Part shown: in pieces, positions 6,368-43,819 of the stretch | How the letters are laid out: every line of letters starts with the position of its first letter | Position numbering within the stretch: position 1 is the first letter of the stretch | Assembly: GCA_964505035.1 (NCBI GenBank) | Contig: CAZDGK010000001.1 | Coordinates: 12,270-76,269, forward strand | Direction: 5' to 3' | From: an uncultured Candidatus Saccharimonadales bacterium | Lineage (GTDB): Bacteria > Patescibacteriota > Saccharimonadia > UBA4664 | Length of the DNA stretch: 64,000 nucleotides | Translations under genes and position numbers: made by a program | Notes under the pieces: generated by a model | The model's input: only the letters and a program-made list of their open reading frames with translations | Database searches by the model: none | Told to the model about the DNA's origin: nothing

Positions 6368-6434
6368 TCACCACAGTGGCGGTAGCTGAACATCTCAGCT
6401 GCCGCTATTTATTTTAGGTTTTAGTCAAACAAGG

Positions 6435-6462: not shown

Positions 6463-6465
6463 GTC

Positions 6466-6918: not shown

Positions 6919-6937
6919 GCGCGCCGCCCCCAAACTT

Positions 6938-6976
6938 GCCCGTCCGGTATTCATCCGGGCGGGCCATTTCTTTTGC
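6938..6976 (+). terminator. Rho-independent terminator.
   Basis: GCCCGTCCGG-tattca-TCCGGGCGGGC stem, including one G.U pair, followed by CATTTCTTTTG. Confidence 0.5.
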
Positions 6977-6988
6977 TACAATACTCTT

Positions 6989-7822
6989 GTGCTTATTAAG
7001 CGATTATCAATCACCGCGCTCGCCTGCCTCGCATTCTTAGCTACCACTGGCTCCATCCAGGCCGCCACCAATGCCTTGGCTCAGATCTTTACCGCCAGCA
7101 GTGCTAAGGGCAAGATCGTAGCCGGTGCGCTTGTTAGCGCCCAGCCGGGTGCGTCTGGTAGTGTCGAGCTGGCCGATGCCGCCACCGCCGACCGGCTCGT
7201 AGGCATAGCAGCCCAGGATGCCGTACTGGTCATCACGGGCAACACCTCGGCCGCCTCAGCATCCGCCAGCCAAGTTCAGGTTGTCCTAAGCGGCTCGGCC
7301 AGCGTGCTCGTCAGCGACCTGAATGGCTCCATCAAAGCCGGCGACCGCATCACCGCCTCGCCAATCGCCGGCGTGGGCATGCGGGCAGGTGGCAGTAGCC
7401 AGATTGTCGGCATTGCCCAGACCGATCTCAAAACCGCCACCGCCGCTACCCGCAGCATCACCGATGTGCATGGCGCCAGCCACAGCGTGCACGTCGGCAA
7501 CGTCCAGCTGCAAGTCGGCATCGGCAGCTACCAGGCACCCGGCAGCAACTACCTGCCGCCAGCCCTGCAGAGCCTGGCAGACAGCATCGCCGGCCGGTCC
7601 GTCTCGCTAGCCCGCATTATCATCTGCAGCCTGCTGCTGCTAGTGGCGCTGGTTAGCGTAGGCGTCCTCATCTTCACCGCCACGCGCTTTGCCATGATCG
7701 CGCTAGGTCGCAACCCGCTGGCGGCTTCCGGCATCCGCAAGAGCCTCTACCAAGTCATCTTTGTATCGGTCGTCATCGTCGGTGGGGCCTTGCTCGCCAG
7801 CTACATTGTCCTGACGCTTTAG
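6989..7822 (+). CDS. Secreted or membrane-anchored Ala/Ser-rich protein with a signal peptide and C-terminal TM helices.
   Basis: Signal peptide 'MLIKRLSITALACLAFLATTGSIQAAT'. Two hydrophobic helices at the C-terminus. GTG start with TACAAT 7 nt upstream. Confidence 0.55.
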   Translation: MLIKRLSITALACLAFLATTGSIQAATNALAQIFTASSAKGKIVAGALVSAQPGASGSVELADAATADRLVGIAAQDAVLVITGNTSAASASASQVQVVLSGSASVLVSDLNGSIKAGDRITASPIAGVGMRAGGSSQIVGIAQTDLKTATAATRSITDVHGASHSVHVGNVQLQVGIGSYQAPGSNYLPPALQSLADSIAGRSVSLARIIICSLLLLVALVSVGVLIFTATRFAMIALGRNPLAASGIRKSLYQVIFVSVVIVGGALLASYIVLTL

Positions 7823-7903: not shown

Positions 7904-9958
7904 ATGGCCAATGAACGCTTCATGGATATCACCCCGCCAACCAGCAGCCAGCCGCTGCCGGGCGCTCAGGTATTGCCCGACCAGCCACCCACCTGGCCAG
8001 GTCTCGCGACCGTCCCGACGCCGCCGCCGAGCTTGCCGCCCCGCCGAGGGCTGTCGCTCAAGACCATCGTGCTGATTGCCGGCGCGGTCGTGGTGGCTGG
8101 CGGCACCGTCGCCGCTATCCTGCTGCGCGCCAACCGGCCCACCTCCACACAGGCCGGCGACTTCAAGTCCGTCCAGCTGTCACTGGCCGATCTCGCCTCC
8201 AATCCCGGCGCGACCGGCCTGATTGGCGCTAGCCTGCAGGTCAATGGCCGGCTCAACCTGTCCGACTCAGTCGTCTTTAACCCCTCCACCCAGCCCACTT
8301 CTCCCGTCGCCGGTCAGCTCTACTACGACCAGACCGCCAACCAGCTGGCGTTTTACAATGGCCAGGGCTACCTCAACCTGGGCGCCACCACCAACAACAC
8401 CACCAACGTCACCAATGTGCTGACCGGCGGCGGCGCTGGCGTCAAACTGCAGGCTACCACCCCCGGCACGCCTCAAACCGGCCACCTGGCCATCACCGGC
8501 ACTGCCATCGTCGGCACGCTTAGCACCAATATCATCGACGGGGGAACCGCCAAGCCGCTCTTCCTGAACCCCGTCTCCGTCAGCACTGCGCCCACCCCCG
8601 CTGGCATCCCGGTGCACATCGGCCTGGATGTACCCGGCGCCACCACCGAGGCCAGCCCCGGTTGGCAAGACGGTATGAATGCCCAGAAAGTCACCATGGG
8701 CGCCGACGGCGGCAAACTCCAGTCCATGAGCGTTATGTACGTGGGCGGCGCGCCCACCGACCACGTCCAGTTTGCCGTCTACGATGACGACGGCGACGTC
8801 CCCAGCAAACCCGGCAGCCGCCTCGCCGCCAGCGCCATCGTTAGTCTGGTGCCCGACGGCTGGGCCACCGCCACACTGCCGTCCATCACCCTCAGCCCCA
8901 ACACCACCTACTGGCTAGCCGTCAACACCGACTCCACCACCGCCCGTCGCACCGTCAACGGCGGCGCCCAGAATTATTGCTACGTCTTCAAGCCCTTTGG
9001 CGCCATGCCCGACCCGTTTAGTGCACCTGGCTGCTTTGGCGGCGACCTGACCTACCCGCTCTACGCCACCTACACCACCCTCGGCGGCACAGCCGGCGCT
9101 ATCAACCAGGCCCAAATGACCCTCGACCCGGCCAGCGGCGTGCTTATCCGCAACCCCATCGACAACGACACCGCTTTCCAAATCCAGAACTCGCTCGGCT
9201 CCAGCACCATCTTTAACGTCGATGTCGCCAATGGCCGCGTCGCCATTGGCAAGCTCAATGCCAGCTACAAACTCGACATCTCCGGCGGCGATGCCAACCT
9301 ATCGCTCAGCCGCTCCCTGCGCTTTGGCGGCCAGCAAACCCTCACCGTCACCAATACCGGCATTACCGCCCTCACCAACCTCAGCGGGGGCGGCACCGTG
9401 CGCGTTCAGGGCGACAGCTTCTCCGTCCAGGACCGCAGCGCCACCCACGCCAACCTCACCATCAATAACCTGACCGGCGCCACCACCTTCTCCAACGTCA
9501 GTGATTCCACCGGCGCCTTCCAGGTTCAAAACGCCGGCAGCACCACCGTCTTTAACGTCGACACCACCAATGCCGTCGTCACGGTCACCACCCTCGTCAC
9601 CGGCAACATCACGGTAAACGGCCATCTCATCACCGGTGGCACAGCGCCCGGCATTGCCGCCGGCGCCGCCGCCTGCACCACCCCCACCGTCAGCCTCATC
9701 GGCACCGATACCGCCGGCAGCATCACCATCACCACCGGCACTGGTTGTGCGGCCAGTGGCACGCTAGCCACCATCACCTTTGCCGCCGCCTTTGGGGCTG
9801 CCCCGCACATCGTGACCACTCCCGGCAATGCTGCCGCCCTGGCTCTCGGCGCCTACATCGACAACGCTACCGTCTCGACCACCAGCTTCAAGATCGCCAC
9901 CGGGACCACGCCTTCCAGCACCACGAGTTACCAATGGAATTACCTCGTCGCCCAGTAA
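7904..9958 (+). CDS. Large surface protein with a Pro-rich N-terminus, a single TM anchor, a Thr/Asn-rich body and tail-fibre-like beta repeats. It is a paralogue of 28986..30635.
   Basis: TM helix 'LKTIVLIAGAVVVAGGTVAAILL'. Repeats 'AFQIQNSLGSSTIFNVDVANGRVAIG' and 'AFQVQNAGSTTVFNVDTTNAVVTV'. A domain 'TYWLAVNTDSTT' is shared with the 28986 protein. Confidence 0.6.
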   Translation: MANERFMDITPPTSSQPLPGAQVLPDQPPTWPGLATVPTPPPSLPPRRGLSLKTIVLIAGAVVVAGGTVAAILLRANRPTSTQAGDFKSVQLSLADLASNPGATGLIGASLQVNGRLNLSDSVVFNPSTQPTSPVAGQLYYDQTANQLAFYNGQGYLNLGATTNNTTNVTNVLTGGGAGVKLQATTPGTPQTGHLAITGTAIVGTLSTNIIDGGTAKPLFLNPVSVSTAPTPAGIPVHIGLDVPGATTEASPGWQDGMNAQKVTMGADGGKLQSMSVMYVGGAPTDHVQFAVYDDDGDVPSKPGSRLAASAIVSLVPDGWATATLPSITLSPNTTYWLAVNTDSTTARRTVNGGAQNYCYVFKPFGAMPDPFSAPGCFGGDLTYPLYATYTTLGGTAGAINQAQMTLDPASGVLIRNPIDNDTAFQIQNSLGSSTIFNVDVANGRVAIGKLNASYKLDISGGDANLSLSRSLRFGGQQTLTVTNTGITALTNLSGGGTVRVQGDSFSVQDRSATHANLTINNLTGATTFSNVSDSTGAFQVQNAGSTTVFNVDTTNAVVTVTTLVTGNITVNGHLITGGTAPGIAAGAAACTTPTVSLIGTDTAGSITITTGTGCAASGTLATITFAAAFGAAPHIVTTPGNAAALALGAYIDNATVSTTSFKIATGTTPSSTTSYQWNYLVAQ

Positions 9959-12677: not shown

Positions 12678-14485
<1,808 letters not shown>

Positions 14486-15343
14486 CTAGGCTCCTGCTTG
14501 GTTAATGGCTTCCGCGCCGCCGGTAATCTCGGCCAGCGACTGCGTAATCGCGGCCTGTCGCGCATCGTTGAGCGTCAATGTCAGGTCAGCCACCAGCTCC
14601 TTGGCGTTGTCGGTCGCGCTCATCATCGCCAGCATGCGGGCCGCCTGCTCACTAGCCCGGGCGTCCAGCACAGACTGCAGCAGTAGCGCCTCGAGCATCC
14701 GCCGGGTCGCAAAGTCCACCAGACGCGTCGGCCCCGGCTCCATTGTCTGCTCGTAGGGAGCCGCCGGCGTCGGCACGACCGGCAGGAGCTGCTGCACTTG
14801 CACATCCTGCCGCACCGTGTTCACAAACTGTGTCGACACCAGCTGTACACTATCAGCCGAGCCGTTCAGAAACAATTCCACAGCCTCATTGAGGATCGGC
14901 TGAGCCAGACCCGTCACGGCATCATGACCATCGATGTCGTAGGCCGCTACCTCTTCCACATCAGTCAGCCGGGCCACATGCAGCGCCGCCCGCCGCCCCA
15001 CGCAAATAGCCGACGCCACTACGCGCATCCCGGCTAGCCGCTGCGACAGCGCCCGCAGCACTTTGCTGTTGTATGCTCCAGCCAGACCTCGGTCGCCCGA
15101 CACGACGATCATCAATGCCCGGCGCACTGGCCGCACCTGGTACAGCTTTTGCTCAGCTAGGCCGTCCGTGCTCTGGAGGCTACTGAGCAGGGCCTTCATG
15201 CCCGCCGTATAGTCCCGCGCGGTCACAGCCGCGGCTTGTGCCCGGCGCAGCTTACTGGCCGCCACCAGCTGCATGGCCTTCGTGATCTGCCGGGTGCTAT
15301 TGACCGACCGAATCCGGTGCTTGATGGCCTGAAGCGTCGCCAC
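14486..15343 (-). CDS. atpG: F1 ATP synthase gamma subunit.
   Basis: N-terminus 'MATLQAIKHRIRSVNSTRQITKAMQLVAASKLRRAQ' is typical of gamma. Confidence 0.85.
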   Translation of the reverse strand: MATLQAIKHRIRSVNSTRQITKAMQLVAASKLRRAQAAAVTARDYTAGMKALLSSLQSTDGLAEQKLYQVRPVRRALMIVVSGDRGLAGAYNSKVLRALSQRLAGMRVVASAICVGRRAALHVARLTDVEEVAAYDIDGHDAVTGLAQPILNEAVELFLNGSADSVQLVSTQFVNTVRQDVQVQQLLPVVPTPAAPYEQTMEPGPTRLVDFATRRMLEALLLQSVLDARASEQAARMLAMMSATDNAKELVADLTLTLNDARQAAITQSLAEITGGAEAINQAGA

Positions 15344-16884
15344 TACTGTGCCTCCTCCTCAGTAGCAAAAGTCTTGGCGATACCTTTGGCCGCCTCGACC
15401 ACCGCCTCAATCTGCTCAGGCGTCGCCTTAGTACCACTCTGCAGGCTCTCAACCAGCTTGGCATGATGCTTACGCACGGTAGCAATCAGCTCCTGCATAG
15501 CCGGTGCCACCTGCTCGTGGGGTAGATTATCAAACGTCCCGCCAGTAGCAGCCAGCAGCACAATGATCTGATCTACCGTCCCGACCGGCTCAAACTGCTT
15601 CTGCTTCAATACCTCGGTCAGTAGCCGGCCGCGCGTAATCCGAGCCTTTGTATCATCATCCAGGTCGCTGCCAAACTGGGCAAACGCCGCCAGTTCGCGA
15701 AATTGCGCCAAATCCAGCCGCAATGTCCCCGCCACCGCCTTGAGCGCCTTGCTCTGAGCCTCGCCGCCCACCCGGCTAACACTCGCACCCACCGAAATCG
15801 CCGGCCGGATGCCTTGGTGAAACAGATTTGACTCGAGGAAAATCTGGCCGTCCGTAATCGAGATGACGTTGGTCGGAATGTACGCGCTAATGTCCCCGGC
15901 TTGCGTCTCGATGATTGGCAGGGCAGTCAGCGAGCCGGCACCCAGCTCGTCGCTGAGCTTGGCCGATCGCTCCAGCAATCGCGAGTGGAGGTAGAACACA
16001 TCACCCGGGTAGGCCTCACGGCCCGGCGGCCGGCGCAGCAGCAATGACAGCTGACGGTAGGCCACCGCATGCTTACTCAGATCATCATACACAATCAACG
16101 CGTGCTGCTTGTTGTCCCGGAACCACTCGCCAATAGCCGTCCCAGCATACGGCGCCAGATAGAGTAGGGAAGCCGGATCAGCCGGGCTGGTCGCCACCAC
16201 AATCGTCTGGTCCATTACACCCTCAGCCTTCAGCCGGTCCACCAACGCTGCTACCTTGCTCAGTCTCTGTCCGACCGCTACGTAGATATTAATGACACCG
16301 GTCTTCTCGCGCAGCTGGTTGATCATGGTGTCCACGGCCAAGGCTGTCTTGCCCGTCTGCCGGTCGCCAATAATCAGCTCGCGCTGGCCACGGCCAATCG
16401 GCGTCAGGGCATCAACCGCCGTAATGCCCGTCGGCAACGGCTCGTGCACACTGCGGCGCTCAATCACACCAGGCGCCCGGCGCTCCATCGGACCAAACGC
16501 ACTGGTCTTGGCCGGCCCCAGACCATCCAGCGGCCGCCCCAATGGGTCTACCACCCGCCCCACTAGCTCCGGGCCCACCGGCACCTGCAGCGCCCGACCG
16601 GTGAGCTTCACTTGGTCGCCAGCCCGCACCTGGTCTTCGCCAGCGAGCAGCACCGCGCCAATCTCATCCTCGCCCAGATTCAGCACAAACGCCTGCACCA
16701 CACCACCGGCCGTCTGCAGCTCGACAATTTCGCCAAAGCCACAATTGGCCAGACCGTACACCCACGCCACGCCGTCCCCAATCCGGGTCACGACGCCCGT
16801 CTGCTCCAGACCCTCTGTCTGCCGCAGACCAGCAATGGCTTCCTGCAGCTCCTGCGTCAGTTCGTTCACGTTCAGATTAGCCAT
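15343..16884 (-). CDS. atpA: F1 ATP synthase alpha subunit.
   Basis: P-loop 'GDRQTGKT'. ATG at 16882-16884. The ORF track extends to 16935 from an upstream alternative start. Confidence 0.95.
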   Translation of the reverse strand: MANLNVNELTQELQEAIAGLRQTEGLEQTGVVTRIGDGVAWVYGLANCGFGEIVELQTAGGVVQAFVLNLGEDEIGAVLLAGEDQVRAGDQVKLTGRALQVPVGPELVGRVVDPLGRPLDGLGPAKTSAFGPMERRAPGVIERRSVHEPLPTGITAVDALTPIGRGQRELIIGDRQTGKTALAVDTMINQLREKTGVINIYVAVGQRLSKVAALVDRLKAEGVMDQTIVVATSPADPASLLYLAPYAGTAIGEWFRDNKQHALIVYDDLSKHAVAYRQLSLLLRRPPGREAYPGDVFYLHSRLLERSAKLSDELGAGSLTALPIIETQAGDISAYIPTNVISITDGQIFLESNLFHQGIRPAISVGASVSRVGGEAQSKALKAVAGTLRLDLAQFRELAAFAQFGSDLDDDTKARITRGRLLTEVLKQKQFEPVGTVDQIIVLLAATGGTFDNLPHEQVAPAMQELIATVRKHHAKLVESLQSGTKATPEQIEAVVEAAKGIAKTFATEEEAQ

Positions 16885-25534: not shown

Positions 25535-25541
25535 AGAAGAA

Positions 25542-25569
25542 GCCCCAGGCGCTGATACGCGCCCGGGGC
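25542..25569. terminator. GC-rich hairpin between convergent genes.
   Basis: GCCCCAGGCGC-tgatac-GCGCCCGGGGC, with one mismatch. Confidence 0.4.
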
Positions 25570-25577
25570 CCTGTGGC

Positions 25578-27173
25578 CTATCGCTTGATGGCCGGTCGGA
25601 TCTTATAGATCCGGATCGTTTCCTTGAAGCCGGTGAATTCGGCTACCACCGTACCGTACCCGAGCAGGCGAGTGAGCGCCTGACTAGTGGGTAGTTTCTC
25701 CGTGGTGGTTTCGTAGGTGATGATGAAATCGGGCCGGCCGGCTGCTTGCTCACACTCTTGTGCGTGTGTGATCTTGCAGTACGGCTGTCCGATCTGATTA
25801 CCGATAAATTCCTCGGTAATCACCTTGGCATCAGGCGGCGCGTTCTGCGCGTCTGCCATCCAGGCCAGTGTCTGCCCAACGGCGTTGTCCGGGTGGACCA
25901 CGATCCGTTCGGCGTATGACACCAACCCGCCGGCTATGACGAGCAGAGTTAGCGCCGTTACCATCACCTTTCTGAGCTTGCCCCAGGAGCGTTGCCGCAG
26001 CCACAGCTGCAGTTCCGCCGCCAGGTAGCAAGCCGCCGGCACGAGTATCAGTATCAGGTAATGCGGGAGCCACAAGTGCCCCAGCCCAAATACTGCGTAG
26101 CTCGCGAGAGCCCAGGCGAACAGCAGAGAGTTCGCGCGGCGTACCGGTTCGAAGCCTTCATTGCGCAGCGATCGCCACGCCAGAGGCACGTAACCAAACC
26201 ACGACTGCGGTTTACTGCTCAGGCGAACCGTGCGGACAGTTTCAATGAGAACCTGCCAACACCGCCAGAGCAGCAGCCCGCCCACCAGTGCCAGCAACCC
26301 TACCGATGCCAGGTAGATGCTGTACTGATGAACCAGCGGACCAACGGCACTCGAAGTGCCCTGAACCGCACCGCGCGACTTGACGATGCCAGTCGCGCGT
26401 AGCAATTGGTGGTAATTGTCAGATATGAACTGCTTGCCAGCCCACACCGACATGCCAAGTACGAACGCCACACCCATGGTCGCGGCGCCGGCCAGCACCG
26501 TCAGGAACTGACGGAGCCGGTAGCGCTCGAGCCACAGGTAGAGCAATCCGCCCAGCAGGAACGTCACCCCGACCAGCTTGTACACCGTGATGGCGCCAAG
26601 CACGAGCCCGGCTGCGTACAGCCGCGCCCAAGTCGGTCGTGTGCTGAGCCGCCAGAAGCCCCACAGAGCTATCAGCCCCAGTGGCACCTGGACGTTTTCT
26701 GCCCAGCCCACGCGGTTCGTAAATACCAACCAGCCGTCAAAGGCCACAAAAGCTGCTGCCAGCAAACCTGCCCCCTGTCCGACGAGTCGGCGCAGGAGCC
26801 AGGCGACCACGATGACCGTGGCCACGCCGGCGACAGCGCTCAGGAGGCGAGCCTGGGTCATCCCCGAGCCCACCAGCCTGAACCACCCCGCTTCCACCAG
26901 GAACAAAAATGGCGGGTGCGAAGTGTACGGTACAGCCTGGCCGATGTATTCGGCCTTGGCGCTCAGCTGGCCAGATGAGGCCAGCCGCGCCGCGATCGCC
27001 TCATACAGCGACTCGTCTACGTCGTAGCCGGGCCACGCATTTCGCCCGAACCGCAGAGCGGCTCCGGCAGCAGCGATCAGAACCACGGCCAGGCCGTACC
27101 AGTGGCGGAACAATGCGCCCCGCCACCTGTGCCTGTTGGGCACCAAGTTGGTCACCTGGCGTCCTCCCTCCAT
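25578..27173 (-). CDS. GT39 / PMT-ArnT-family (GT-C) membrane glycosyltransferase.
   Basis: 'YDVDESLYEAIAARL' DE motif in the first periplasmic loop. About 12 TM helices. The start is taken at M33 of the ORF; the ORF extends to 27269. Confidence 0.7.
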   Translation of the reverse strand: MEGGRQVTNLVPNRHRWRGALFRHWYGLAVVLIAAAGAALRFGRNAWPGYDVDESLYEAIAARLASSGQLSAKAEYIGQAVPYTSHPPFLFLVEAGWFRLVGSGMTQARLLSAVAGVATVIVVAWLLRRLVGQGAGLLAAAFVAFDGWLVFTNRVGWAENVQVPLGLIALWGFWRLSTRPTWARLYAAGLVLGAITVYKLVGVTFLLGGLLYLWLERYRLRQFLTVLAGAATMGVAFVLGMSVWAGKQFISDNYHQLLRATGIVKSRGAVQGTSSAVGPLVHQYSIYLASVGLLALVGGLLLWRCWQVLIETVRTVRLSSKPQSWFGYVPLAWRSLRNEGFEPVRRANSLLFAWALASYAVFGLGHLWLPHYLILILVPAACYLAAELQLWLRQRSWGKLRKVMVTALTLLVIAGGLVSYAERIVVHPDNAVGQTLAWMADAQNAPPDAKVITEEFIGNQIGQPYCKITHAQECEQAAGRPDFIITYETTTEKLPTSQALTRLLGYGTVVAEFTGFKETIRIYKIRPAIKR

Positions 27174-28837
27174 TCCGATGGACGGTTGTTGACGATCAGG
27201 CGCGACCGCACCCGACCGACCCGCGGCATCACTGGCGGCGCAAATCCGCGCCGGGTGAACCGCTGGCAATTACCGTACACGAATGTCGAGCTAAATACCG
27301 CACCGATGAACGGATACAAGACCCCTTCAACGTGCTGAGCCGACAAAACGTTGGTCAAAATGAGCGACAGCGTCGCCGCCGCCATCAAGTCCAACGCCAC
27401 TACGGGTTGATACATCACACCAAGCACAGCCGCCGCGACACCAATCGGTATCGCTATCAGCTGCGCCAGCCGGAAGACCGAGAACGGGGAATAGGGGTAG
27501 GCCACAATGAAGTCGCCGCACCCTCGCCCCGATCGCATGTACTCCCGGAGAAGCGCCCTAAACCCCTCCCGGTGCGATCGGCGAGCCGACAGCAGGGGAG
27601 TGGTGTAGATGGTGAATCCCGCCCGCAGAGCCCGCCACGCATACTCGTAGTCTTCGTACGAGTTCGTGAAATCGGGCCTGGGCTCGTGAATGGCATTCCA
27701 AACTTCGCGCCGTACTGCCAGATTGGCCGTCACCGGTGGTTTGAATTCACCGATGTTGTCCGCCGTGAGGCGGAACGGCCTAACTACACGAGGGGTCTTC
27801 GACCCACTGGTGGTCCGGTCAATAAACCGGCCCCAGAAGCTGTGCGCCACACCCGTCACCGGGCCGGCCACAAACTTCTCGCCGCCGGTCGTCAGCAGGT
27901 CCACAATATTGGCGAGCCAATATTTGCCTGGCATCAGATCGGCATCCGCATAGACAATGATCTCGCTGTCTTGGGAGACATAGAGCATGCCTTGCTGCCG
28001 CTTGGCGTTCGCATCCCGCCCTGGCGAAACGACCTTGACTTCGACGTTGTTGATCGCGGCGCCGGCCATAAATTGACCGATGCCGCTCCACGTCTGGTCG
28101 TAGGGGTCGCCTACCAGGACGAGCTGAACGTTGCGCGGATAGCTGCGAACGTAGGTCTGGCGGTTGAGAGCTCCCAGCAAGCGGCCAATTGAATCGCCGT
28201 TGTTCTTGCAGGGAACCACAATGCTTACCTTGGGATATCGGGTCACGATAGTGCCGTGGTCCGCTGGGTCCGGCTGTTCGCCTGGCGCGAACGTGTACGT
28301 GTCGTTGGCCGTGTAGTTAAACGCAGCTCCGACAATCGCACCCGCCACGTAGGCGAGCCAGGCCGGTAGTCCCAGCCCCGGGATTCCATACCCCGACACC
28401 CACAGACCATTTGTCTGCAGGTTGTACAGGATTTGGTTGAGCCCAAAGGTAAACAAACGGGCGTAGTGGAAGTACAGCCACGAGCGCCGGAACCCAACGG
28501 CCCGGCGGTCGCTCCACGTGATGTACCGGCTGCCGAGGAAGTTTAGTTCCACGGATACCGCACCTTCCAGAAGATAGCTCCAGAAGTTCGGCCAGCCCAG
28601 GACATTGCGCAGGAAGTACAGCAACCCGGCTCCGATTATGAAGACCGAGATGCCGACACCTGCGAACTTAACGACCCGTAGTGCGTAGCGCACGAGATAC
28701 ACGATCTCGCGCCACCGGAATACGTACAGAGTTCGCCTTAGCAGGTAGAAATAACCTACCAGCAGGGTCCACACCACCGAGAACGGTGGCGGAACCCGGG
28801 TGAACCTGTCTGGTACCCCCGCCCGATGAGTTCTCAA
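27152..28837 (-). CDS. GtrA-like membrane domain fused to a GT2 glycosyltransferase, a polyprenyl-phosphate sugar synthase type.
   Basis: GtrA motif 'VKFAGVGISVFIIGAGLLYFL...NFLGSRYITW'. GT2 'VSIVVPCKNNGDSIG' and a DxD-like 'YADAD'. Probable TTG start at 28837 after GAGAGGAG; the ORF runs to 28939. Confidence 0.7.
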   Translation of the reverse strand: MRTHRAGVPDRFTRVPPPFSVVWTLLVGYFYLLRRTLYVFRWREIVYLVRYALRVVKFAGVGISVFIIGAGLLYFLRNVLGWPNFWSYLLEGAVSVELNFLGSRYITWSDRRAVGFRRSWLYFHYARLFTFGLNQILYNLQTNGLWVSGYGIPGLGLPAWLAYVAGAIVGAAFNYTANDTYTFAPGEQPDPADHGTIVTRYPKVSIVVPCKNNGDSIGRLLGALNRQTYVRSYPRNVQLVLVGDPYDQTWSGIGQFMAGAAINNVEVKVVSPGRDANAKRQQGMLYVSQDSEIIVYADADLMPGKYWLANIVDLLTTGGEKFVAGPVTGVAHSFWGRFIDRTTSGSKTPRVVRPFRLTADNIGEFKPPVTANLAVRREVWNAIHEPRPDFTNSYEDYEYAWRALRAGFTIYTTPLLSARRSHREGFRALLREYMRSGRGCGDFIVAYPYSPFSVFRLAQLIAIPIGVAAAVLGVMYQPVVALDLMAAATLSLILTNVLSAQHVEGVLYPFIGAVFSSTFVYGNCQRFTRRGFAPPVMPRVGRVRSRLIVNNRPSEWREDAR

Positions 28838-28985
28838 CCCATCTCCTCTCTCTAGGCTTGTGAAAGGGCATGCCGGCCACGCGGTCGACACTGGCGGATA
28901 CAGCAGCAATCTGCCACAGTATGCAGACCACTTTAACACAAAATGGTCAATATGTGAAGCAGATTAGCTTGGCCAAGCGCCTAGC

Positions 28986-30635
28986 TTACGGCACCAGTTC
29001 GATCCATACTGTATTGCCAGTCGCGCTGCTGCCCAGGCCAGGCAAACTGCCGCCCGCGTAGGCCGTCGTTTTGGCCAGTACCGGTGAGAGCCCGGCTACG
29101 CCGCCAGCCAATGTAGCACCCTTCACCGACAACGTCGTGCCCGTCCAAGCAATCGCCAGATATAGCTGCTGACTGACTGAGGTGTTTATAGTGCTGTCGA
29201 GCGCCAGGTTGTCGTAGAGCGTGGAGGCCGTCGTCACCGTGGTATGAATATCCGCCGTCGATGCGAGCAGCACGTTACTCGAGTTATAGACACCCAACCG
29301 CACCTCGGTCAGTCCGGCCGGCGTCGTCGTCCCCGTGGCAAAGCGGATCTTCGTAAAGCTCGAGGCCACCTTGGCGTAGGCCAGGATGCCATACACCGTG
29401 CCGGTAGTCAGGTTGAGATTGCCCGAGGCGATCAGCCGGCTCATCGTCGACACATTGCTACTACGCCGCAGCTCAAACTCATCAAAGAAGTTATTGGCCG
29501 ATACCGATCCTGTCACATTCAGGTTGCCAGTCACGGTCACGTCACCAGTCCCGGCATTGACCACGAAACTGTCGGTATTAGTGCCGTCGCCCTTCAGGAT
29601 GCGGAATGTGCGCGTTTGGGTAGTGTTGGTGTTGCGAAAAATCCGGTAAGTCGCATTGTGGGCGTTGTCTTGCGTCAGCACATCATTGTCGATAATCGTG
29701 TGGCCATTCACATCCAGAGTCGGCGTTTGATTGCCCAACACGGTGCCCGCCGCCGTCTTAAACTGCAGCCGCCCTGCCATCGTGATGTTGCCAGTCTTGG
29801 CGTCCATAAATATCACCTGCGTGGCGGTGCCGTCGGCCGCATACAGTGCCCAGGTAGCCGTGCTCGTATTGGTGTCGCGGAATACCCGCACCGCCGCCCC
29901 CGTAGTATTGTCCAGACCCACCCCAATATCGAGCGTCGCCACACCGCCGGCGTCCACGTTGTAGGTCAGCTTGCCCACGGTGTAGTTAGTGCCGCTCGAT
30001 GTCCCAGCCGCCACCGAGCCACTGGTTGGGGTATTAAAGGTGATGCCAAACTGCGTGTTCGGACTATTGATGCCATTCTCGATATAGAGCATCGAGCACG
30101 AATAAAACGCCGCCTGCGTCTGATCAGCGTCACTCTTGAGCCTAAACCGGGTCACCAATACCGACGAGTTGGGCCCGGTAGGGTCGGCCGCCGTCTTGAC
30201 CTCCAAGCCGTGGTGACTCGAACCGCTCGGGATCAGGTCGTGCCAGCCCAGCCAGGCCTGTACCCGCCCGTTCACATCAATCCACACCGGACCGCCCCGG
30301 CTTAGCGTACCCTCGTCCTGGAACACGATGTTCTTCTGCACGAACCCACCCGGATCATTGACCGAGTTCATCACAATCTGCCCGGTCCGGGCCGCTTGTT
30401 CCGGAAATGCCAGATTACCACTAAACGTCTTCGTACCCGACGCCGTCTCGTTGCCCGACAGGTGCATCACAGTGCTATCGGTCGCCTTGGCCGCCAGGTC
30501 GCTCACAAGATTGGTGATTTGGGCTTGAGAAAGGCTTTTAATGGTGCCGTCCGCATTGTGCGTCACCATTAGGAAATCATTCAGAATATCGCCCCAGACG
30601 CCGTCATCGCCTCCGGGCTGTGGCAGCCGCGACAC
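28986..30635 (-). CDS. Large Thr/Asn-rich surface protein, a paralogue of 7904..9958. It has a conserved 'LPQPGGDDGVWGDILNDFL' N-terminus and tail-fibre-like repeats.
   Basis: Repeats 'VRVFRDTNTSTATWALYAADGTATQVIF' and 'YRIFRNTNTTQTRTFRILKGDGT'. C-terminal 'LYLAIAWTGTT' domain is shared with the 7904 protein. Confidence 0.6.
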   Translation of the reverse strand: MSRLPQPGGDDGVWGDILNDFLMVTHNADGTIKSLSQAQITNLVSDLAAKATDSTVMHLSGNETASGTKTFSGNLAFPEQAARTGQIVMNSVNDPGGFVQKNIVFQDEGTLSRGGPVWIDVNGRVQAWLGWHDLIPSGSSHHGLEVKTAADPTGPNSSVLVTRFRLKSDADQTQAAFYSCSMLYIENGINSPNTQFGITFNTPTSGSVAAGTSSGTNYTVGKLTYNVDAGGVATLDIGVGLDNTTGAAVRVFRDTNTSTATWALYAADGTATQVIFMDAKTGNITMAGRLQFKTAAGTVLGNQTPTLDVNGHTIIDNDVLTQDNAHNATYRIFRNTNTTQTRTFRILKGDGTNTDSFVVNAGTGDVTVTGNLNVTGSVSANNFFDEFELRRSSNVSTMSRLIASGNLNLTTGTVYGILAYAKVASSFTKIRFATGTTTPAGLTEVRLGVYNSSNVLLASTADIHTTVTTASTLYDNLALDSTINTSVSQQLYLAIAWTGTTLSVKGATLAGGVAGLSPVLAKTTAYAGGSLPGLGSSATGNTVWIELVP

Positions 30636-31701: not shown

Positions 31702-32547
31702 GTGGCTGCCCAGGTTGATGTTTCGGCCTCGTCACCGCAGATGCTCCCGGTCAGTCAGCATCTGCGCGAGCTCCGGCGGCGGCTCAGCTATCCGGCCGGC
31801 GTGGTGCTGCTGGGCGCAGGCCTCGCCTACATCTGGCGGCAACCGCTCATCGAGCTAATGCGCCGGCCGCTTGGCCAGCCGTTGTTTTATACCTCGCCCA
31901 CCGCCGGCTTCAATTTCGTCATGGAGCTCTGCCTGCTCGCCGGCTTTCTGCTGGCTCTGCCGGTGCTCTGCTACCAGCTGGTGCGTTTCATCGAGCCAGT
32001 GTTTACGCAGCGTCTACGTGGCCGCGATATCGTACGGCTCATCAGTACCTCATCTGTCCTCGTCCTAGCCGGTGTCGCCTTTGGCTACTATCTCAGCCTG
32101 CCAGCCGCCCTGCGCTTCTTCACGCTCGTCGGCAGCAACGACCTGCGGCCGCTCATCTCGGCCGATCAGTATCTGCGCTTCCTCCTCAGCCACCTCGCCA
32201 TCTTTGCTGCCGCCTTCCAGCTACCCCTGCTACTGCTCGTAATCAATCGCTTCACGCCCCTCGACCCGCGCCGCCTCGGCCGGGCCCGCCGCTACGTCAT
32301 CGTCGGTGCCTTCGCTCTGGCTCTCATCGTGCCCTGGGCGCCCGACCCTTTGAGCCAGCTCATCCTAGCCCTGCCGATCATCGCGCTCTACGAGCTGTCG
32401 ATACTGCTGGTGCGGCTATCCAACCGCCACCGCCTGACCGATCTGCCACCGCCACCAGTCATCCCGCGGCTCAAACCCGCCGTCCCCAAACCGCCACAAC
32501 CGCCGGCCAAACGCCGGACAGGTCCCGTCAACCTGCGCGACCGTTAG
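31702..32547 (+). CDS. tatC: Twin-arginine translocase subunit TatC.
   Basis: 'HLRELRRRL' N-terminus and six TM helices. Sits directly after tatA. Confidence 0.9.
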   Translation: MAAQVDVSASSPQMLPVSQHLRELRRRLSYPAGVVLLGAGLAYIWRQPLIELMRRPLGQPLFYTSPTAGFNFVMELCLLAGFLLALPVLCYQLVRFIEPVFTQRLRGRDIVRLISTSSVLVLAGVAFGYYLSLPAALRFFTLVGSNDLRPLISADQYLRFLLSHLAIFAAAFQLPLLLLVINRFTPLDPRRLGRARRYVIVGAFALALIVPWAPDPLSQLILALPIIALYELSILLVRLSNRHRLTDLPPPPVIPRLKPAVPKPPQPPAKRRTGPVNLRDR

Positions 32548-34439
32548 CTAATAGGGAAGGTCAGCGTTACCGTCGACCCCTGCCCAAGCTGCGAAGCAAT
32601 CGCAATCTCGCCGCCCACATAGTGCATAATCAGCCGGTCAATATAGAGGCTCAGCCCCGCCCCTTCGTGATTAAACGTCAACGCCCCTTCAGCCTTATAA
32701 AACGGCTGGAAAAGCTGTGATAGCTGGTCTGGCGCGATCCCTTTGCCATGGTCACGCACCGTGATGCTAGCCGGCTGTCGCAGATCGCCGGCATTAGCCG
32801 CAATTTCTACCCGGCTCGGTCCCGTGCTATACGCCACCGCGTTGTCGAGCACCGATGCCACCACCTGCGACACCCAGTCGGCGTGCCGGCAGCGCAAGCT
32901 CAGCTCCGGCGGACCATCCAGCGTCACATTGCGGGCATCCGCCGCCGGCTGCAAGGCAGCCTTGGCCGGCCCCACCAGCGCAGACACCGCCACCGTCTGC
33001 AGAGGCGCCTCACTCTGACCAGCCTGCAGCCGGCCAGCTACCTCACAGCACGCCACCAGCCGCCGGTAGCGGTCATAGCCGTCATGGATCGCTTTGCCAC
33101 CGGGTTGATCGGCCGCTAGGTGCGGCAGCAGCTTAGCCAAGCCCTCTAGGCTATGGCCCATCTGCACAGCCACTTCCGCAATCAACTCCGAGCGAGCCTT
33201 GTCGACCACCCGCTGGTGCTCCGTGACCTGCCCACGCATCTGCCGCTGCCACCCCCGCAAGCGCCGGCCTCGCAGCAGCACATACAGCCCCACGGCCAAA
33301 CCGGCCAGCACCGCCCACTGCACCAGCATGTTGACCGTGCCCACGTCCACCTGGCCGACTGCCATCACCAGGAAGTTAAATGACGACGTCGCCACCACCA
33401 GCAGTCCAATTGGCAACCAAAAGCCCCACTGGGTCCAGACTCGCGCCGGCGGCATGATGGCATCCGGTGGCGGCACCGCAGCCAGCAGCGGGCTGGCATC
33501 TAGTCGTTTGAGCAGGCCAGTCGCCGCCAGATTGACCGTCTCGACCGCCACCGCCAGTCGGCTAGTGGCATCAGGCGGCAGCTCCGGCTTAAACTTGAGG
33601 CTATCCACTCCTGCCTGCAGCAGCGTCAACGGCGTGCGCAAATAGTGCGATACCAGCTGCAGCAAGGTGGTTTTCTCGTCGGTAATCACCCGCTCATGCT
33701 CCAGCAACCGCTGTTGCTCCAGATTGCGTGCCGCCTCCTGCTGCGCCTGCCACACCAGCACCAGCAATATGCCACCCAGCAGCGCAAAAAGCAGATAGGG
33801 GAAGCCGCGCACTACTGGCAGCGGCACTTGGGCAATGATGCGCTGCAGCTGAGCCGCCACCGCTGGCGTCAGCAGCCCAAACAGCGTCCCGGCTGTCGCC
33901 GCGGCCGCCTGCACCGACACCGTAAAGTCAGTCGTAGTCACATCGGCGCCTTGCCGCACCAACACCCGCACGTGCTTACCTGGCCGCTGATCGGTCGGCC
34001 AGTCCCACCGGGCCGTGCCATCGGCATCAGGCTTCACTGAAGCCACCAATTGGCCGTCTATATAGAAGTCCACACTATCAAAGCTCTGTCCTTGGCCATT
34101 GAGCGGCGTGACGGTCACCACATAGTGCGGCCGCGGCAACACCTGCCCGTTATGCAGATTAATGGCGTACTGCAGGCCGCTCGGCGCCGTCACCACGGTC
34201 GACTCGACCGGCGTCGAAGTCGGCGACGTCGCGGGACTCACGCTCGGCGACACACACGCCGTATCGCAGCCATTGTATGGCCCGTCGCCATACGGCCCCA
34301 CACCATAGGCCGTCGCCGCAGCAACCACCGGGGCCAATAGCCACAGCAACCCCAGCCCCAAACCCACTGCCTGCCATACCCGCCTCACGTACCGACTCTC
34401 GCCCTGCTTATGCTTCTCATCATACCGCACCTTGTCCAA
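32544..34439 (-). CDS. Sensor histidine kinase with a large extracytoplasmic N-terminal domain.
   Basis: H-box 'LVSHYLRTPLTLL'. HATPase 'DHGKGIAPDQ...GAGLSLYI...GQGSTVTLTFP'. 4-nt overlap with tatC on the opposite strand. Confidence 0.8.
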   Translation of the reverse strand: MDKVRYDEKHKQGESRYVRRVWQAVGLGLGLLWLLAPVVAAATAYGVGPYGDGPYNGCDTACVSPSVSPATSPTSTPVESTVVTAPSGLQYAINLHNGQVLPRPHYVVTVTPLNGQGQSFDSVDFYIDGQLVASVKPDADGTARWDWPTDQRPGKHVRVLVRQGADVTTTDFTVSVQAAAATAGTLFGLLTPAVAAQLQRIIAQVPLPVVRGFPYLLFALLGGILLVLVWQAQQEAARNLEQQRLLEHERVITDEKTTLLQLVSHYLRTPLTLLQAGVDSLKFKPELPPDATSRLAVAVETVNLAATGLLKRLDASPLLAAVPPPDAIMPPARVWTQWGFWLPIGLLVVATSSFNFLVMAVGQVDVGTVNMLVQWAVLAGLAVGLYVLLRGRRLRGWQRQMRGQVTEHQRVVDKARSELIAEVAVQMGHSLEGLAKLLPHLAADQPGGKAIHDGYDRYRRLVACCEVAGRLQAGQSEAPLQTVAVSALVGPAKAALQPAADARNVTLDGPPELSLRCRHADWVSQVVASVLDNAVAYSTGPSRVEIAANAGDLRQPASITVRDHGKGIAPDQLSQLFQPFYKAEGALTFNHEGAGLSLYIDRLIMHYVGGEIAIASQLGQGSTVTLTFPIS

Positions 34440-42472: not shown

Positions 42473-43681
42473 TCATATGCTAACCCGCAGCCTGACAGGA
42501 GCATTTACCACTTCCGCGTATAGTTCCGTCATAGCTTCTGCCGTGTGGTTCCAGCCGTAGCGGGCATGCACCCGCCGCGCCGCCGCCTTGCCGTACTTGC
42601 GACGCAGCGCCGCATCACCAAGCAGCTCGCTGATAGCGCTAGTCAGCCCAGCGCGATCGCCCGGCATAACCTGCCGGCCGGTACTGCCATCTACCACACT
42701 GTCAATCAGACCTCCCACAGCATAGGTTACCACCGGCACACCACAGGCCATCGCCTCTAGCGGCGTCAAGCCAAACGGTTCATACCAGGGTGTGCACGTC
42801 ACGAGGTCGGCCGAGCGGTACCAGCTCGCCATCTCCGATGCCGGAACCGCACCCACCAACTGCACCTGATCGGTCACACCGAGCGCGTCAGCCAGCTGGT
42901 ACAGTCGCCTAAACTCCGGGTCACGATCAGCCCCATGTTCGGGCCCGCCCACCACCACCAGCTCGACGCCGGGCAGGTTAGGCAGGATCCGAATCACCTC
43001 CTCGAACCCCTTGCGCGGAACGGGTCGGCCAACTGCCAGTAGCCGGGGCCCGGTCTTATTGACCGTCGGCCCGCGCGGCTGAAACTGGTTCAGATCAATG
43101 CCGGAAGGAATGAGCCGGATTTGGGTAGCGGGGACGCCAAGAGCCATTAGTTCGGCCACCTCATCGCTACATTGAGCCACGACTCGCTGCACCACCAGGG
43201 CCAGCTGCCGTTCAATCGACATCCGCCCCGCCGGACTAGTATCGTCCTGGCGCTGGAAACGTCGCTTGACGTTGCCGTGAGCATGATAGGTCAGCACAAC
43301 CGGAATCTGCCGCGGCATCGCCCCCCGCAACGCCGCGATTCCGCTCATCCAGAAGTGGGCATGAACCACATCCGGCCGCCTCTTCGACTCCGCAAACCGA
43401 CTGCTCAGCCAGCTGCCAAATGGCACCATATAGGGCATGAGCTCGTCCTTGGGCACGCCTTCGGGAGGACCCACGGGCACATGCACCACCTCATACCCCC
43501 CTGGAGCGCTGATGCGCCCGGCCCTGACCATGCTGTCGCGCCGGGTGTAGACCGTCACTTCGTGACCCACCGCCACCAGCGCCGCAGCCAGACCGGCCAC
43601 GTGTCGATTTTGCCCACCGGCGTCAATTCCGCTAATCGTTGCCAGCGGGCTGGCATGCTCTGACACAAGTGCAATCCTCAT
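42473..43681 (-). CDS. GT4 glycosyltransferase (MshA/BshA-like retaining family).
   Basis: 'MRIALVSEHASPLA...GGQNRHV' N-terminus and a C-terminal EX7E-type region. ATG at 43679-43681. Confidence 0.8.
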   Translation of the reverse strand: MRIALVSEHASPLATISGIDAGGQNRHVAGLAAALVAVGHEVTVYTRRDSMVRAGRISAPGGYEVVHVPVGPPEGVPKDELMPYMVPFGSWLSSRFAESKRRPDVVHAHFWMSGIAALRGAMPRQIPVVLTYHAHGNVKRRFQRQDDTSPAGRMSIERQLALVVQRVVAQCSDEVAELMALGVPATQIRLIPSGIDLNQFQPRGPTVNKTGPRLLAVGRPVPRKGFEEVIRILPNLPGVELVVVGGPEHGADRDPEFRRLYQLADALGVTDQVQLVGAVPASEMASWYRSADLVTCTPWYEPFGLTPLEAMACGVPVVTYAVGGLIDSVVDGSTGRQVMPGDRAGLTSAISELLGDAALRRKYGKAAARRVHARYGWNHTAEAMTELYAEVVNAPVRLRVSI

Positions 43682-43819
43682 GCCGCACCCCCCGTTGGGT
43701 TGCAACATCGGGGATCAAGGTACTTCACCGGACACTCCCTTCTATTTGTGAGAATTAGCGCCAGCCGGGGCACTCTACCACAACCTTTGCCAACACGCAC
43801 CGTTAGTACTTACAAAAGC

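Follow-up and report, generated by a model that had tools for sequence, protein, structure and literature searches.

A phage-fibre-like gene beside a coupled GtrA-GT2 and GT-C glycosyltransferase pair in Saccharimonadales

We analysed a stretch of 64,000 nucleotides (hereafter the window) from the chromosome of a soil Saccharimonadales (TM7) bacterium. Three successive minus-strand ORFs, which we call A, B and C, span positions 25578-30635, in the order that a sequence-only reading of this DNA had described. That reading took them for one operon in which a surface protein is glycosylated by the products of the two genes that follow. The features of the locus are:

28986..30635, minus strand: gene A, 549 aa, GTG start; a phage minor-tail-protein-like fibre
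30501..30635, minus strand: A residues 1-45, an N-terminal module (M-x-R-L-P-x-P-G-x-D-x-x-x-W-G-x-I-L-N-D-F-L) common to phage fibre and tailspike-like proteins
30411..30482, minus strand: A residues 52-75, a BppL_N-like collar motif in an indel-prone linker
30006..30407, minus strand: A residues 77-210, where the family is most conserved (alignment A1, per-region conservation)
28989..29438, minus strand: A residues ~400-549, a beta-sandwich tip, confidently modelled (pLDDT about 85-95)
28838..28985, minus strand: A-B intergenic gap, 148 nt, with a promoter-like site at 28958-28930
27152..28837, minus strand: gene B, 561 aa; N-terminal GtrA/DPMS-type 4-TM domain, GT2 domain and C-terminal TM helices
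28289..28669, minus strand: GtrA_DPMS_TM domain of B, residues 57-183 (Pfam PF04138)
27359..28234, minus strand: GT2 catalytic domain and C-terminal membrane region of B (Pfam PF13641, PF00535, PF13632)
25578..27155, minus strand: gene C, a 525-aa GT-C (PMT_2) glycosyltransferase, GTG start
25540..25571, minus strand: terminator-like hairpin closing the unit, 7 nt past the C stop codon (13-pair stem, 10 of the pairs G-C, T-rich tail)

B starts at TTG 28837, which has GGAG upstream and before which its homologues do not align; the resulting 561-aa protein is identical to database protein P0119 (NCBI and Logan sources). The gap between A and B is therefore 148 nt and not short, as the gaps within the trio had been said to be. 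This gap holds a promoter-like site (TTCACA-17-TAAAGT with TG), of a kind whose regional count is at chance level, and no terminator-like hairpin. The gap has no conserved sequence, and its RNA structure is not significant (z = -1.05). The most likely start of C is GTG 27155, with GGAGGGAGG 7 nt upstream and the homologue P0108 beginning at the aligned position. From this start, C overlaps the stop codon of B by 4 nt (GTGA); an overlap of 22 nt, in keeping with the approximately 20 nt first reported, results only if C starts at ATG 27173. The neighbours of the trio in the window include a tRNA synthetase, TrxB, histidine kinases, TatC and L1, and the window contains no tRNA.

The domain searches recovered the expected GtrA, GT2 and PMT_2 domains. 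In B, GtrA_DPMS_TM (PF04138; E 4.7e-14, 117 of 117 profile positions) lies N-terminal to a GT2 domain recognised by the models Glyco_tranf_2_3, Glycos_transf_2 and Glyco_trans_2_3. When the B family profile was compared with the PDB, P. furiosus DPMS (5mlz) came top (E 1.1e-27) with two matched stretches covering both modules, an E-value (1e-27) that stems mostly from the TM domain; ArnC (1e-6) and GtrB (1.2e-5) were also matched, and the single-sequence match of B to P. furiosus DPMS is weak (E 0.0026). The GtrA_DPMS_TM domain of B aligns with the TM domain of the archaeal enzyme (residues 250-373). B thus resembles a domain-swapped archaeal dolichol-phosphate-mannose synthase: both proteins carry a GT2 catalytic domain and a GtrA-like four-helix membrane domain on one polypeptide, whereas their order is reversed, with the membrane domain at the N-terminus of B but at the C-terminus of DPMS, and B has extra C-terminal TM helices. 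Given this resemblance, and with both modules present in most B homologues, the fusion of GtrA to GT2 is not unusual, although it had been singled out as uncommon.

For C, PMT_2 (PF13231; E 3.2e-14) was the sole Pfam model reported at E<=0.01. Neither Pfam PMT (PF02366) nor PMT_4TMC matched C, and PF02366 appears only on distant relatives that are 20-21% identical to it (alignment A2). D45, D47 and E48, which follow TM1, are invariant in the 12 sequences of that alignment; since other GT-C families also have such an acidic first-outer-loop motif, it does not discriminate for PMT. The AlphaFold model of C (pLDDT 83.8, pTM 0.84) has the superfamily GT-C fold and the acidic loop-1 motif in common with ArnT (GT83) and Pmt (GT39), and Foldseek placed ArnT first (5f15; E 1.4e-9, TM-score 0.55), followed by STT3/AglB (about 1e-8) and then by ALG9/12 (9e-7) level with Chaetomium Pmt4 (CtPmt4, 9e-7), with ScPmt1/2 at 1.5e-3 or weaker. 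In a profile search against solved structures, Pmt4 (E 0.0015) and ArnT (E 0.0089) were not separable. Unlike Pmt, C has no MIR domain, and its C-terminal outer domain comprises only about 100 residues. Of the earlier label, a GT39/PMT-like GT-C transferase, the PMT_2 family and the GT-C fold stand, whereas an assignment to PMT/GT39 is not supported, because the PMT-specific models miss C and because ArnT and the oligosaccharyltransferases are structurally nearer than the Pmt proteins. We also rejected an ArnT (GT83) identity with an Arn pathway, as no Arn pathway genes occur among the window ORFs scanned; Saccharibacteria are not expected to have lipid A, to which ArnT transfers its sugar. 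The acceptor specificity of C cannot be read from its sequence or fold.

B and C are tightly coupled and constitute one enzyme system. Their 4-nt overlap recurs in four related loci (L001, L004, L013 and L020), the two genes are fused into a single 1015-aa ORF in L018, and they are adjacent in every locus that has both. All the parts of a Gtr- or Arn-type system that had been proposed (GT2, GtrA-type membrane domain and GT-C transferase) are present in the pair, and, as in GtrA/GtrB/Gtr GT-C, ArnC/ArnE-F/ArnT, CsbB/GtcA/YfhO and GacI-L, the three are encoded together and translationally coupled. In such three-component systems, a sugar is loaded onto a lipid phosphate, flipped, and transferred outside the membrane (PMC8035078, PMC11127046). 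The pair in the window differs from them in that the GT2 carries the GtrA module as an N-terminal fusion, in that a phage-fibre-like gene is linked, and in the ancestry of the GT2, which is not orthologous to GtrB, ArnC, DPM1 or CsbB and has as its named relatives (names from the sources) ExoA, HpnI, ceramide-glucosyltransferase-like, Glyco_transf_21-type and cellulose-synthase-like proteins, so that even the polyprenyl-phosphate acceptor of B is one that we infer.

A is related to the minor tail (receptor-binding) proteins of actinophages, having both the fibre-type N-terminal module and the tip fold. The N-terminal module was found in 5,375 representative clusters at E<=1e-3, mostly from residue 1, and in six Streptomyces phage records; it also occurs on proteins with BppL_N, DUF5907, Phage_tail_C, pectate-lyase beta-helix and GDSL domains. 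A itself matches Pfam BppL_N at E 3.1e-5 with 23.8 bits, under the 25.8-bit cut-off, and the collar residues 52-75 are missing from a 513-aa subfamily. The central 134-residue domain (residues 77-210) holds 54 invariant positions, including H141-H142, D133, E145, R163, R165, D169 and D171, has an AlphaFold pLDDT of only about 40-60, and has no detectable counterpart in actinophage minor tail proteins. The model of A is poor over most of its length (mean pLDDT 62). When Foldseek was run with this model, the PDB matches were the Bxb1 tail tip and, at E 7.7e-5, the central fibre gp20 of mycobacteriophage Douge. Among viral proteins there were 110 matches at E<=1e-3, led by minor tail proteins from phages of Streptomyces, Gordonia and Mycobacterium; from the confidence profile, these matches of ~160-190 columns probably fall on the tip domain. 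The tip is the most divergent part between subfamilies (residues 471-549 are only 27% identical), and the family is best conserved at the centre and less so towards the tip, a pattern expected of receptor-binding proteins. A thus shares its module, BppL_N-like collar and beta-sandwich tip with actinophage fibres (Douge gp20, the Bxb1 tail tip and the collagen-repeat protein of Streptomyces phage BRock); in contrast to them, it has housekeeping genes as its neighbours and no further virion genes around it, and no related locus has phage genes that would place A within a virion gene cluster. Its full-length homologues, which all come from Saccharimonadales or metagenome contigs, keep the N-terminus after the GTG start and are roughly 46-80% identical overall to the window protein. 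A had been called a surface-protein paralogue, yet it has no relative in the window: tblastn found A only, and phmmer --max gave no match among the other unassigned window ORFs. The ORF at 7904-9958 has a similar Thr/Gly/Asn-rich composition, without detectable homology to A.

We rejected A as a classical secreted or anchored surface protein. Its highest 19-residue Kyte-Doolittle mean is 1.25, with no segment reaching 1.6, whereas the same measure exceeds 2 in B and C. A begins with a hydrophilic stretch (MSRLPQPGGDDGVWGDILNDFL), its hydropathy profile shows neither a signal peptide nor a TM segment or pilin-type leader, and no TM anchor, lipobox or wall-sorting motif was seen when the sequence was judged by eye. 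An extracellular role for A would thus need an unrecognised secretion route, which weakens both the reading that we favour below and the reading in which A is itself the acceptor. According to the latter, which we consider rather unlikely, A would be exported and C would O-glycosylate Ser/Thr residues of the fibre with the lipid-linked sugar made by B, in a dedicated protein-glycosylation system. The Thr-rich composition first noted for A is real (14.0% versus 6.6% across eleven housekeeping proteins that the window encodes; Ser 8%) and agrees with such a role, as do the conserved adjacency of A and B-C described below, the GT-C fold and acidic loop-1 motif that C has in common with protein O-mannosyltransferases, and the Pfam PMT domain of the most distant sequence relatives of C. 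However, the longest S/T run in A is 3 residues, with no long Ser/Thr or Pro/Thr tracts; C is structurally nearer ArnT and the oligosaccharyltransferases than Pmt; and the window codes for at least two further PMT_2 enzymes, so this family is not special to A. PMT-type mannosylation works on Sec-translocated chains. The earlier proposal that A is an O-mannosylation substrate fits poorly with a phage-fibre-like protein that has no signal peptide, and A and B-C each occur without the other. A precedent for modification of a fibre subunit does exist in Pseudomonas aeruginosa, where tfpW adjoins pilA. The pilin, unlike A, bears a class III leader and leaves the cell by a known export route. As with C and A, the pair consists of a GT-C enzyme and a fibre subunit, and TfpW glycosylates the type IV pilin (bioRxiv 10.1101/2020.04.19.049825).

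We found that A adjoins B-C in 10 of 13 informative loci. This linkage is a new result, and it bears out the association proposed for the window. The genes run as A>B>C in six of the ten loci, converge (A> <C<B) in three, and have C upstream of A (C>A) in one, and thus A is not upstream of B-C on the same strand in four of them. These arrangements, like the promoter-like sequence between A and B in the window, speak against a single operon. The flanks are unrelated (rpl/nusG, groEL/pgi, lepA/tatAC, rml/manC, Ku/LigD and S8 peptidase). Adjacency at this frequency, in three arrangements and between unrelated flanks, makes a functional link between A and B-C likely and does not require co-transcription. 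In L003, L017 and L009, A has no B-C within 8 kb, and in L014 relatives of B-C occur without any protein bearing the A N-terminal module; these loci count against the reading that we favour as well as against A as the acceptor. It is quite unlikely, in our view, that A and B-C lack any functional link and stay side by side only because a small clade has inherited this gene order, with B-C decorating a wall polymer in the manner of other GT2/GT-C pairs of the genome. The A family is indeed small (about 29 full-length proteins, present in 4 of 185,579 species genomes), a wider neighbourhood of HATPase_c, nusG-like and L1 genes is common to the window, L001 and L007, and the window has a second GT-C and GT2 pair, without a fibre gene, at 51255-53557. 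Against such passive inheritance, the trio is intact in several loci whose flanks differ completely, its relative orientation has changed at least twice, and the divergence of A to ~46% identity implies a long time for random rearrangement amid otherwise shuffled neighbourhoods.

The fibre-like nature of A suggests a comparison with phages, since P22-like and Shigella phages (P22, SfV, SfX) carry gtrABC surface or serotype-conversion genes beside their tailspike gene. As in these cassettes, the gene for a receptor-binding-type protein lies beside a GtrA/GT2/GT-C glycan-modifying set. The trio could accordingly come from a phage or phage-like element, with B-C altering a surface glycan of their own cell that is the receptor of the linked fibre A; this change would prevent self-binding or superinfection, and A would be the matching receptor-binding protein or a mere remnant. 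Apart from the fold and N-terminal module of A, this origin would fit the movement of the trio as a unit among unrelated chromosomal contexts in both orientations, and the tailspike-like proteins with the same N-terminal module that adjoin B-C in L010 and L013. We nevertheless regard it as unlikely. No integrase, capsid, terminase or other tail genes were found within about 8 kb in any locus, the flanks of the trio have no integrase or att-type features, no defence-system model matched, and a pattern scan of 2.9 million IMG/VR viral contigs found neither the A core nor the B family. The strong purifying selection on A (54 invariant central residues at ~46-80% identity) argues against a decaying remnant. 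Unlike the phage cassettes, the trio lies outside any prophage context, its host is a monoderm CPR bacterium, and the family appears to be vertically maintained in one clade.

We tentatively favour a fibre-plus-glycan cassette, in which a glycopolymer of the bacterial envelope is decorated by B-C, and A depends on that glycan for its function. Several observations favour a glycopolymer as the acceptor. In L020, the trio sits amid dTDP-rhamnose, GDP-mannose and GT4 genes; in L013 and L014, UDP-glucose dehydrogenase and epimerase genes adjoin the B-C relatives, and only there; and the tailspike-like neighbours of B-C in L010 and L013 carry pectate-lyase-type, glycan-degrading domains. Three-component systems that decorate wall polymers are also established in Gram-positive bacteria (PMC8035078, PMC11127046). 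By analogy with these systems, B would take a sugar from a nucleotide-sugar donor and attach it to polyprenyl phosphate on the inner face of the membrane, the lipid-linked sugar would then reach the outer face, possibly aided by the GtrA-type domain, and C, as a GT-C of the ArnT/PMT superfamily, would pass it to an acceptor in the cell envelope. A would be a domesticated fibre of the kind that actinophages use as receptor-binding minor tail proteins, and, if exported, it may either dock, in a lectin-like manner, on the glycan modified by B-C or be kept by that modification from binding its own cell. In both cases, the function of A would be tied to the B-C glycan, and A and B-C would therefore be inherited together.

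Three successive minus-strand ORFs fill positions 25578-30635, as the sequence-only reading had proposed. We refer to them as genes A, B and C and place their starts as follows.

28986-30635, minus strand: A (549 aa), phage minor-tail-protein-like fibre; start GTG at 30635, supported by all homologues
27152-28837, minus strand: B (561 aa), GtrA/DPMS-type domain and GT2; start TTG at 28837, with GGAG upstream, where homologue alignments begin and from which the product is identical to a database protein from NCBI and Logan
25578-27155, minus strand: C (525 aa), PMT_2 GT-C enzyme; most likely start GTG at 27155, with GGAGGGAGG 7 nt upstream and the database homologue P0108 beginning at the aligned residue

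Because B starts at TTG 28837, the gap between A and B is 148 nt and not short as claimed. With C starting at its GTG, B and C most likely overlap by 4 nt (GTGA); an overlap of about 20 nt would fit a start at ATG 27173, which is less likely. In the database, A appears as P0001 (527 aa), called 22 codons too far downstream, so that the most conserved part of its N-terminal module (30570-30635) is lost; an exact-sequence look-up of full-length A returned no record. A G+C-rich hairpin of 13 pairs with a T-rich tail lies 3' of C, and no terminator-like hairpin was found between A and B. The A-B gap contains a promoter-like site, of a kind that occurs in this region at chance level, and a search of the gap for a conserved RNA or regulatory element yielded neither conserved sequence nor significant fold.

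The window has a G+C content of about 60%, and scans of it for tRNA genes and Rfam families gave no matches. Named homologues of A, B and C come from Candidatus Saccharimonadales or Saccharimonas metagenome-assembled genomes. Housekeeping genes flank the trio (thioredoxin-reductase-type oxidoreductase, class II tRNA synthetase, PAS histidine kinase, TatC and ribosomal protein L1) and lie farther off in the window (ATP synthase, DnaB, DNA polymerase III clamp loader, SHMT and thymidylate synthase), so that this stretch is chromosome, neither phage nor plasmid. Near A, in the window and in the related loci L001/L008, L004 and L007, is a 631-aa protein with a C-terminal HATPase_c domain only and no HisKA match (window 32544-34439, minus strand), which may be a cassette-associated sensor or mere local synteny. 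The window also holds a second GT-C/GT2 pair, in which a PMT_2 protein (51255-52787, plus strand) overlaps a 257-aa plain GT2 (52784-53557, plus strand) by 4 nt; unlike B and C, this pair has the reversed gene order and lacks both a GtrA domain and a fibre gene. Near it are a third, weak PMT_2-like protein (620 aa; 53968-55830, minus strand) and a GT4 enzyme (42473-43708, minus strand). With several PMT_2 and GT genes in the window, the genome thus holds multiple lipid-carrier glycosylation systems.

The domains predicted for the two enzymes were recovered with Pfam: B has GtrA_DPMS_TM and three GT2 models, and C has PMT_2. The family profile of B matches Pyrococcus furiosus dolichol-phosphate-mannose synthase (DPMS; E 1.1e-27), whose C-terminal membrane domain aligns with the N-terminal GtrA-type domain of B. 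From this alignment, B appears to be a domain-swapped form of a known GT2 plus GtrA-like architecture. Nor is the fusion uncommon, as had been thought: most B homologues have both modules, and the Pfam name 'GtrA/DPMS' reflects the same pairing. Further profile matches of the GT2 domain are ArnC (1e-6) and GtrB (1.2e-5), but the nearest of its relatives that carry names are ExoA, HpnI or ceramide-glucosyltransferase-like, and polyprenyl phosphate is thus a putative acceptor of B. Family profiles were required to find PDB relatives of either enzyme, since single-sequence searches gave a weak DPMS match for B and nothing for C; NCBIfam matches were all sub-threshold (MftF, HpnB/I and EpsD for B, Agl23 for C). 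C is well modelled (pLDDT 83.8, pTM 0.84) and, as a GT-C enzyme, belongs to the ArnT/STT3/PMT structural class. Its best match is ArnT (5f15, E 1.4e-9, TM-score 0.55), followed by yeast, human and archaeal oligosaccharyltransferases, ALG9/12, Chaetomium Pmt4 (9e-7), PglB and AftA, with yeast Pmt1/2 at only about 1e-3. The D-x-D-E after TM1 of C is invariant, a motif generic to GT-C enzymes. The label GT39/PMT-like is not supported: PMT-specific Pfam models found no match in C, and its profile does not separate Pmt4 (0.0015) from ArnT (0.0089) among PDB sequences, so C is not assignable to GT39. These matches neither place C in a non-PMT family with a lipid acceptor, a result that the sequence-only reading had named as refuting it, nor speak against such a family.

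The first protein is Thr-rich as described (14% vs 6.6% in eleven housekeeping proteins of the window), but its description as a surface-protein paralogue is not confirmed: A lacks any hydrophobic segment and has no paralogue in the window by tblastn, phmmer --max or motif regex. What was mistaken for one is probably a 684-aa ORF at 7904-9958 (plus strand) with an N-terminal membrane helix and no Pfam match. Its composition nearly equals that of A (T 14.2%, G 11.4%, N 6.1%), a likeness of composition only, as homology to A was undetectable; of the two, it is the better candidate for a true surface protein. A search of 5.8 billion proteins gave about 29 full-length homologues of A (~43-80% identity), and A is encoded in only 4 of 185,579 species-representative genomes, all Saccharimonadales/Saccharibacteria. 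The sole Pfam match of A is sub-threshold (BppL_N, residues 52-75), BppL_N being the N-terminal motif of a phage lower-baseplate protein; a single-sequence PDB search gave noise only.

Residues ~1-45 of A (M-x-R-L-P-x-P-G-x-D-x-x-x-W-G-x-I-L-N-D-F-L...) form a module common to many other proteins. An exhaustive HMMER search with residues 1-80 (30396-30635, minus strand) against representative clusters at 50% identity found 5,375 clusters at E<=1e-3 and 683 at E<=1e-10, mostly matching from residue 1 of carriers that range from 86 to >2,000 aa. The second half of this query repeats in very long proteins, in up to 12 copies. The C-terminal parts of the carriers include BppL_N, DUF5907 repeats, Phage_tail_C, phage tail repeats, pectate-lyase/beta-helix and GDSL esterase, the same modular layout as in phage fibres and tailspikes, and a classical signal peptide is absent from all module proteins examined. 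Six Streptomyces phage records have the same module at the head of proteins, including a collagen-repeat protein of phage BRock. In the large Streptomyces phages BRock (100187-101134) and GiJojo (gene 34), the module gene lies within a tRNA-gene array, outside the tail gene block.

In the AlphaFold2 model of A (mean pLDDT 62), only residues ~400-549 are confident, forming a beta-sandwich. The best PDB structure matches are mycobacteriophage Douge central fibre gp20, a capsid-associated chain of cyanophage A4 and the tail tip of Bxb1; predicted viral structures yielded 110 at E<=1e-3, topped by minor tail proteins of Streptomyces, Gordonia and Mycobacterium phages. The most conserved region of the family is residues 77-210 (30006-30407, minus strand), with 54 invariant positions, among them two adjacent His and several Asp, Glu and Arg, and with the motifs GWHD..P.G..HHG.E.K, TRFR..SD.D and AFYS. 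This region is poorly modelled and matched nothing in any library; it could be a catalytic or ligand-binding site instead of fibre shaft. The tip is the most divergent part (27% identity between two subfamilies), and a conserved centre with a divergent tip is the pattern expected of receptor-binding proteins. Together, the N-terminal module, the structure matches and the conservation pattern identify A as a phage minor-tail-protein-like fibre in a cellular housekeeping context. Among 2.9 million IMG/VR viral contigs, pattern scans with the A and B profiles found relatives neither of the A core nor of the B family. No phage genes occur in the flanks of A at any locus examined, PHROGs gave one weak virion-protein match for A and none for B or C, and PADLOC gave no matches. 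A phage-style 'fibre plus surface conversion' origin of the cassette is a possible one to which prophage features give no support.

We compared 18 related loci by gene tables and tblastn and counted the 13 A-containing loci with readable flanks.

Arrangement of A, B and C in the 13 loci (L numbers are handles for related loci)
A>B>C on one strand: window, L001/L008, L004, L007, L012, L020 (n = 6)
A convergent with B>C: L005/L006, L010, L018 (n = 3)
C upstream of A: L011 (n = 1)
B-C absent within 8 kb of A: L003 and L017 (shared context), L009 (n = 3)

Four further A homologues, to judge by contigs of identical length, are probably on the same contig as a B or C homologue. B and C are adjacent in all cases, always in the order B>C; their overlap is 4 nt in five loci, and in L018 (7636-10683, minus strand) GtrA, GT2 and PMT_2 are found in one 1015-aa ORF, a natural B/C fusion convergent with the A homologue. 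The flanks vary widely (L11/L1/nusG/secE; groEL...NUDIX/pgi; lepA...tatA/tatC; rmlABCD/manC...LPG synthase/GT4; Ku/LigD; S8 peptidase/umuDC-like). Pure hitch-hiking, with A and B-C unlinked in function, is therefore unlikely, since the contexts are shuffled while the trio persists. Because the linkage is kept in differing orientations, co-transcription of A with B-C is not essential; together with the promoter-like site this leaves the single-operon claim unsupported.

Other module proteins also lie beside A, B-C relatives or both. L010 contains, divergent from A, a further carrier of the N-terminal module, with a pectate-lyase-like body (6041-7702, minus strand). The B-C pair of L013 is more distantly related (33-38% identity); it is followed by UDP-glucose dehydrogenase and is convergent with an 877-aa tailspike-like protein that has the first 34 residues of A (12830-15463, minus strand), and a prophage check of the neighbours in L013 gave only tailspike-like, Lsr2-like and UDP-glucose dehydrogenase matches and weak partition-ATPase matches. 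These two loci suggest that fibre- or spike-like proteins are generally associated with a B-C-type glycosylation pair, and the persistent, orientation-independent linkage, which extends to them, argues for a functional relationship. L014 has B-C, UDP-glucose dehydrogenase and an epimerase, and no module protein. The UDP-glucose dehydrogenase and NAD-dependent epimerase/dehydratase genes beside B-C relatives (L013 11097-12401, L014 11030-13502), and the rmlABCD, phosphomannomutase and manC genes that flank them in L020 (1-5151), hint at which pathway supplies the sugar donor; the window has no such genes in the immediate surroundings of the trio. We found no fourth conserved gene: of the divergent ORFs upstream and the 160-aa ORF between A and B in L001, none is kept outside close relatives. 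In L019 (1034-7629), a type IV pilus operon encoding a PilB-like ATPase, a PilC-like platform protein, a pilin and PilM lies divergent to the A homologue, and the contig stops just past A.

We are fairly confident that B and C fit the established three-component scheme by which single sugars are added to envelope glycoconjugates outside the membrane (PMC8035078, PMC11127046, PMC7389260). If wall-polymer decoration is all that B and C do, nothing but the fused GtrA would set the locus apart from ordinary three-component glycosylation systems. We lean slightly towards a glycan-lectin relationship: B-C would decorate an envelope polymer that fibre A binds or must avoid. We do so because the relatives of A are glycan-recognising phage proteins, linked sister proteins bear glycan-degrading domains, and in L020, L013 and L014 B-C have wall-polysaccharide or nucleotide-sugar genes around them. 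Slightly less weight falls on the proposal of the sequence-only reading that A itself is the acceptor glycosylated by C; the GT-C enzyme TfpW, which glycosylates pilin (10.1101/2020.04.19.049825), is a precedent, but A has neither an export signal nor long Ser/Thr tracts, and C shows no specific affinity to Pmt enzymes, all of which weakens it. N-glycosylation was rejected, as the 14 N-x-S/T sequons of A (about 9 expected) are not striking, and C shows no OST-type WWDYG region and has an outer C-terminal domain of only ~100 residues.

Cultivated Saccharibacteria live attached to Actinobacteria. A bolder scenario, which we consider improbable, is that soil Saccharibacteria domesticated an actinophage-type receptor-binding fibre to recognise wall glycans of host or kin, with module-defined, signal-peptide-independent export, in a mobile cassette with the glycan-rewriting B-C. 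In the domestication scenario, B-C would rewrite the cell's own envelope glycan, so that the fibre would be anchored to self or kept off self. Phage tailspike and seroconversion genes are an analogous pair of lectin and glycan code, which here would serve a cell.

Overall, the original observation is confirmed in part and its interpretation partly supported. As an enzyme pair, B-C is ordinary and belongs to a known kind, and its type of fusion is known too. New, and of moderate interest, is that in an epibiont lineage this pair is coupled, in conserved fashion, to a domesticated actinophage-like fibre; literature searches combining Saccharibacteria with GtrA, tail fibre or glycosyltransferase turned up no account of the A-B-C module. 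Host recognition and attachment by ultrasmall CPR/Saccharibacteria are still described as largely unknown (PMC12206443), with evidence to date pointing only to type IV pili and a few glycan-binding adhesins (PMC10633639, PMC12206443). Our analysis reveals a large family with a common N-terminal module, no classical export signal and, in many members, depolymerase-type domains. Within it, A, which is chromosomal, strongly conserved and built like an actinophage receptor-binding fibre, is a concrete candidate for glycan-based recognition in Saccharibacteria, a case strengthened by its genetic tie to an envelope-glycosylation pair.
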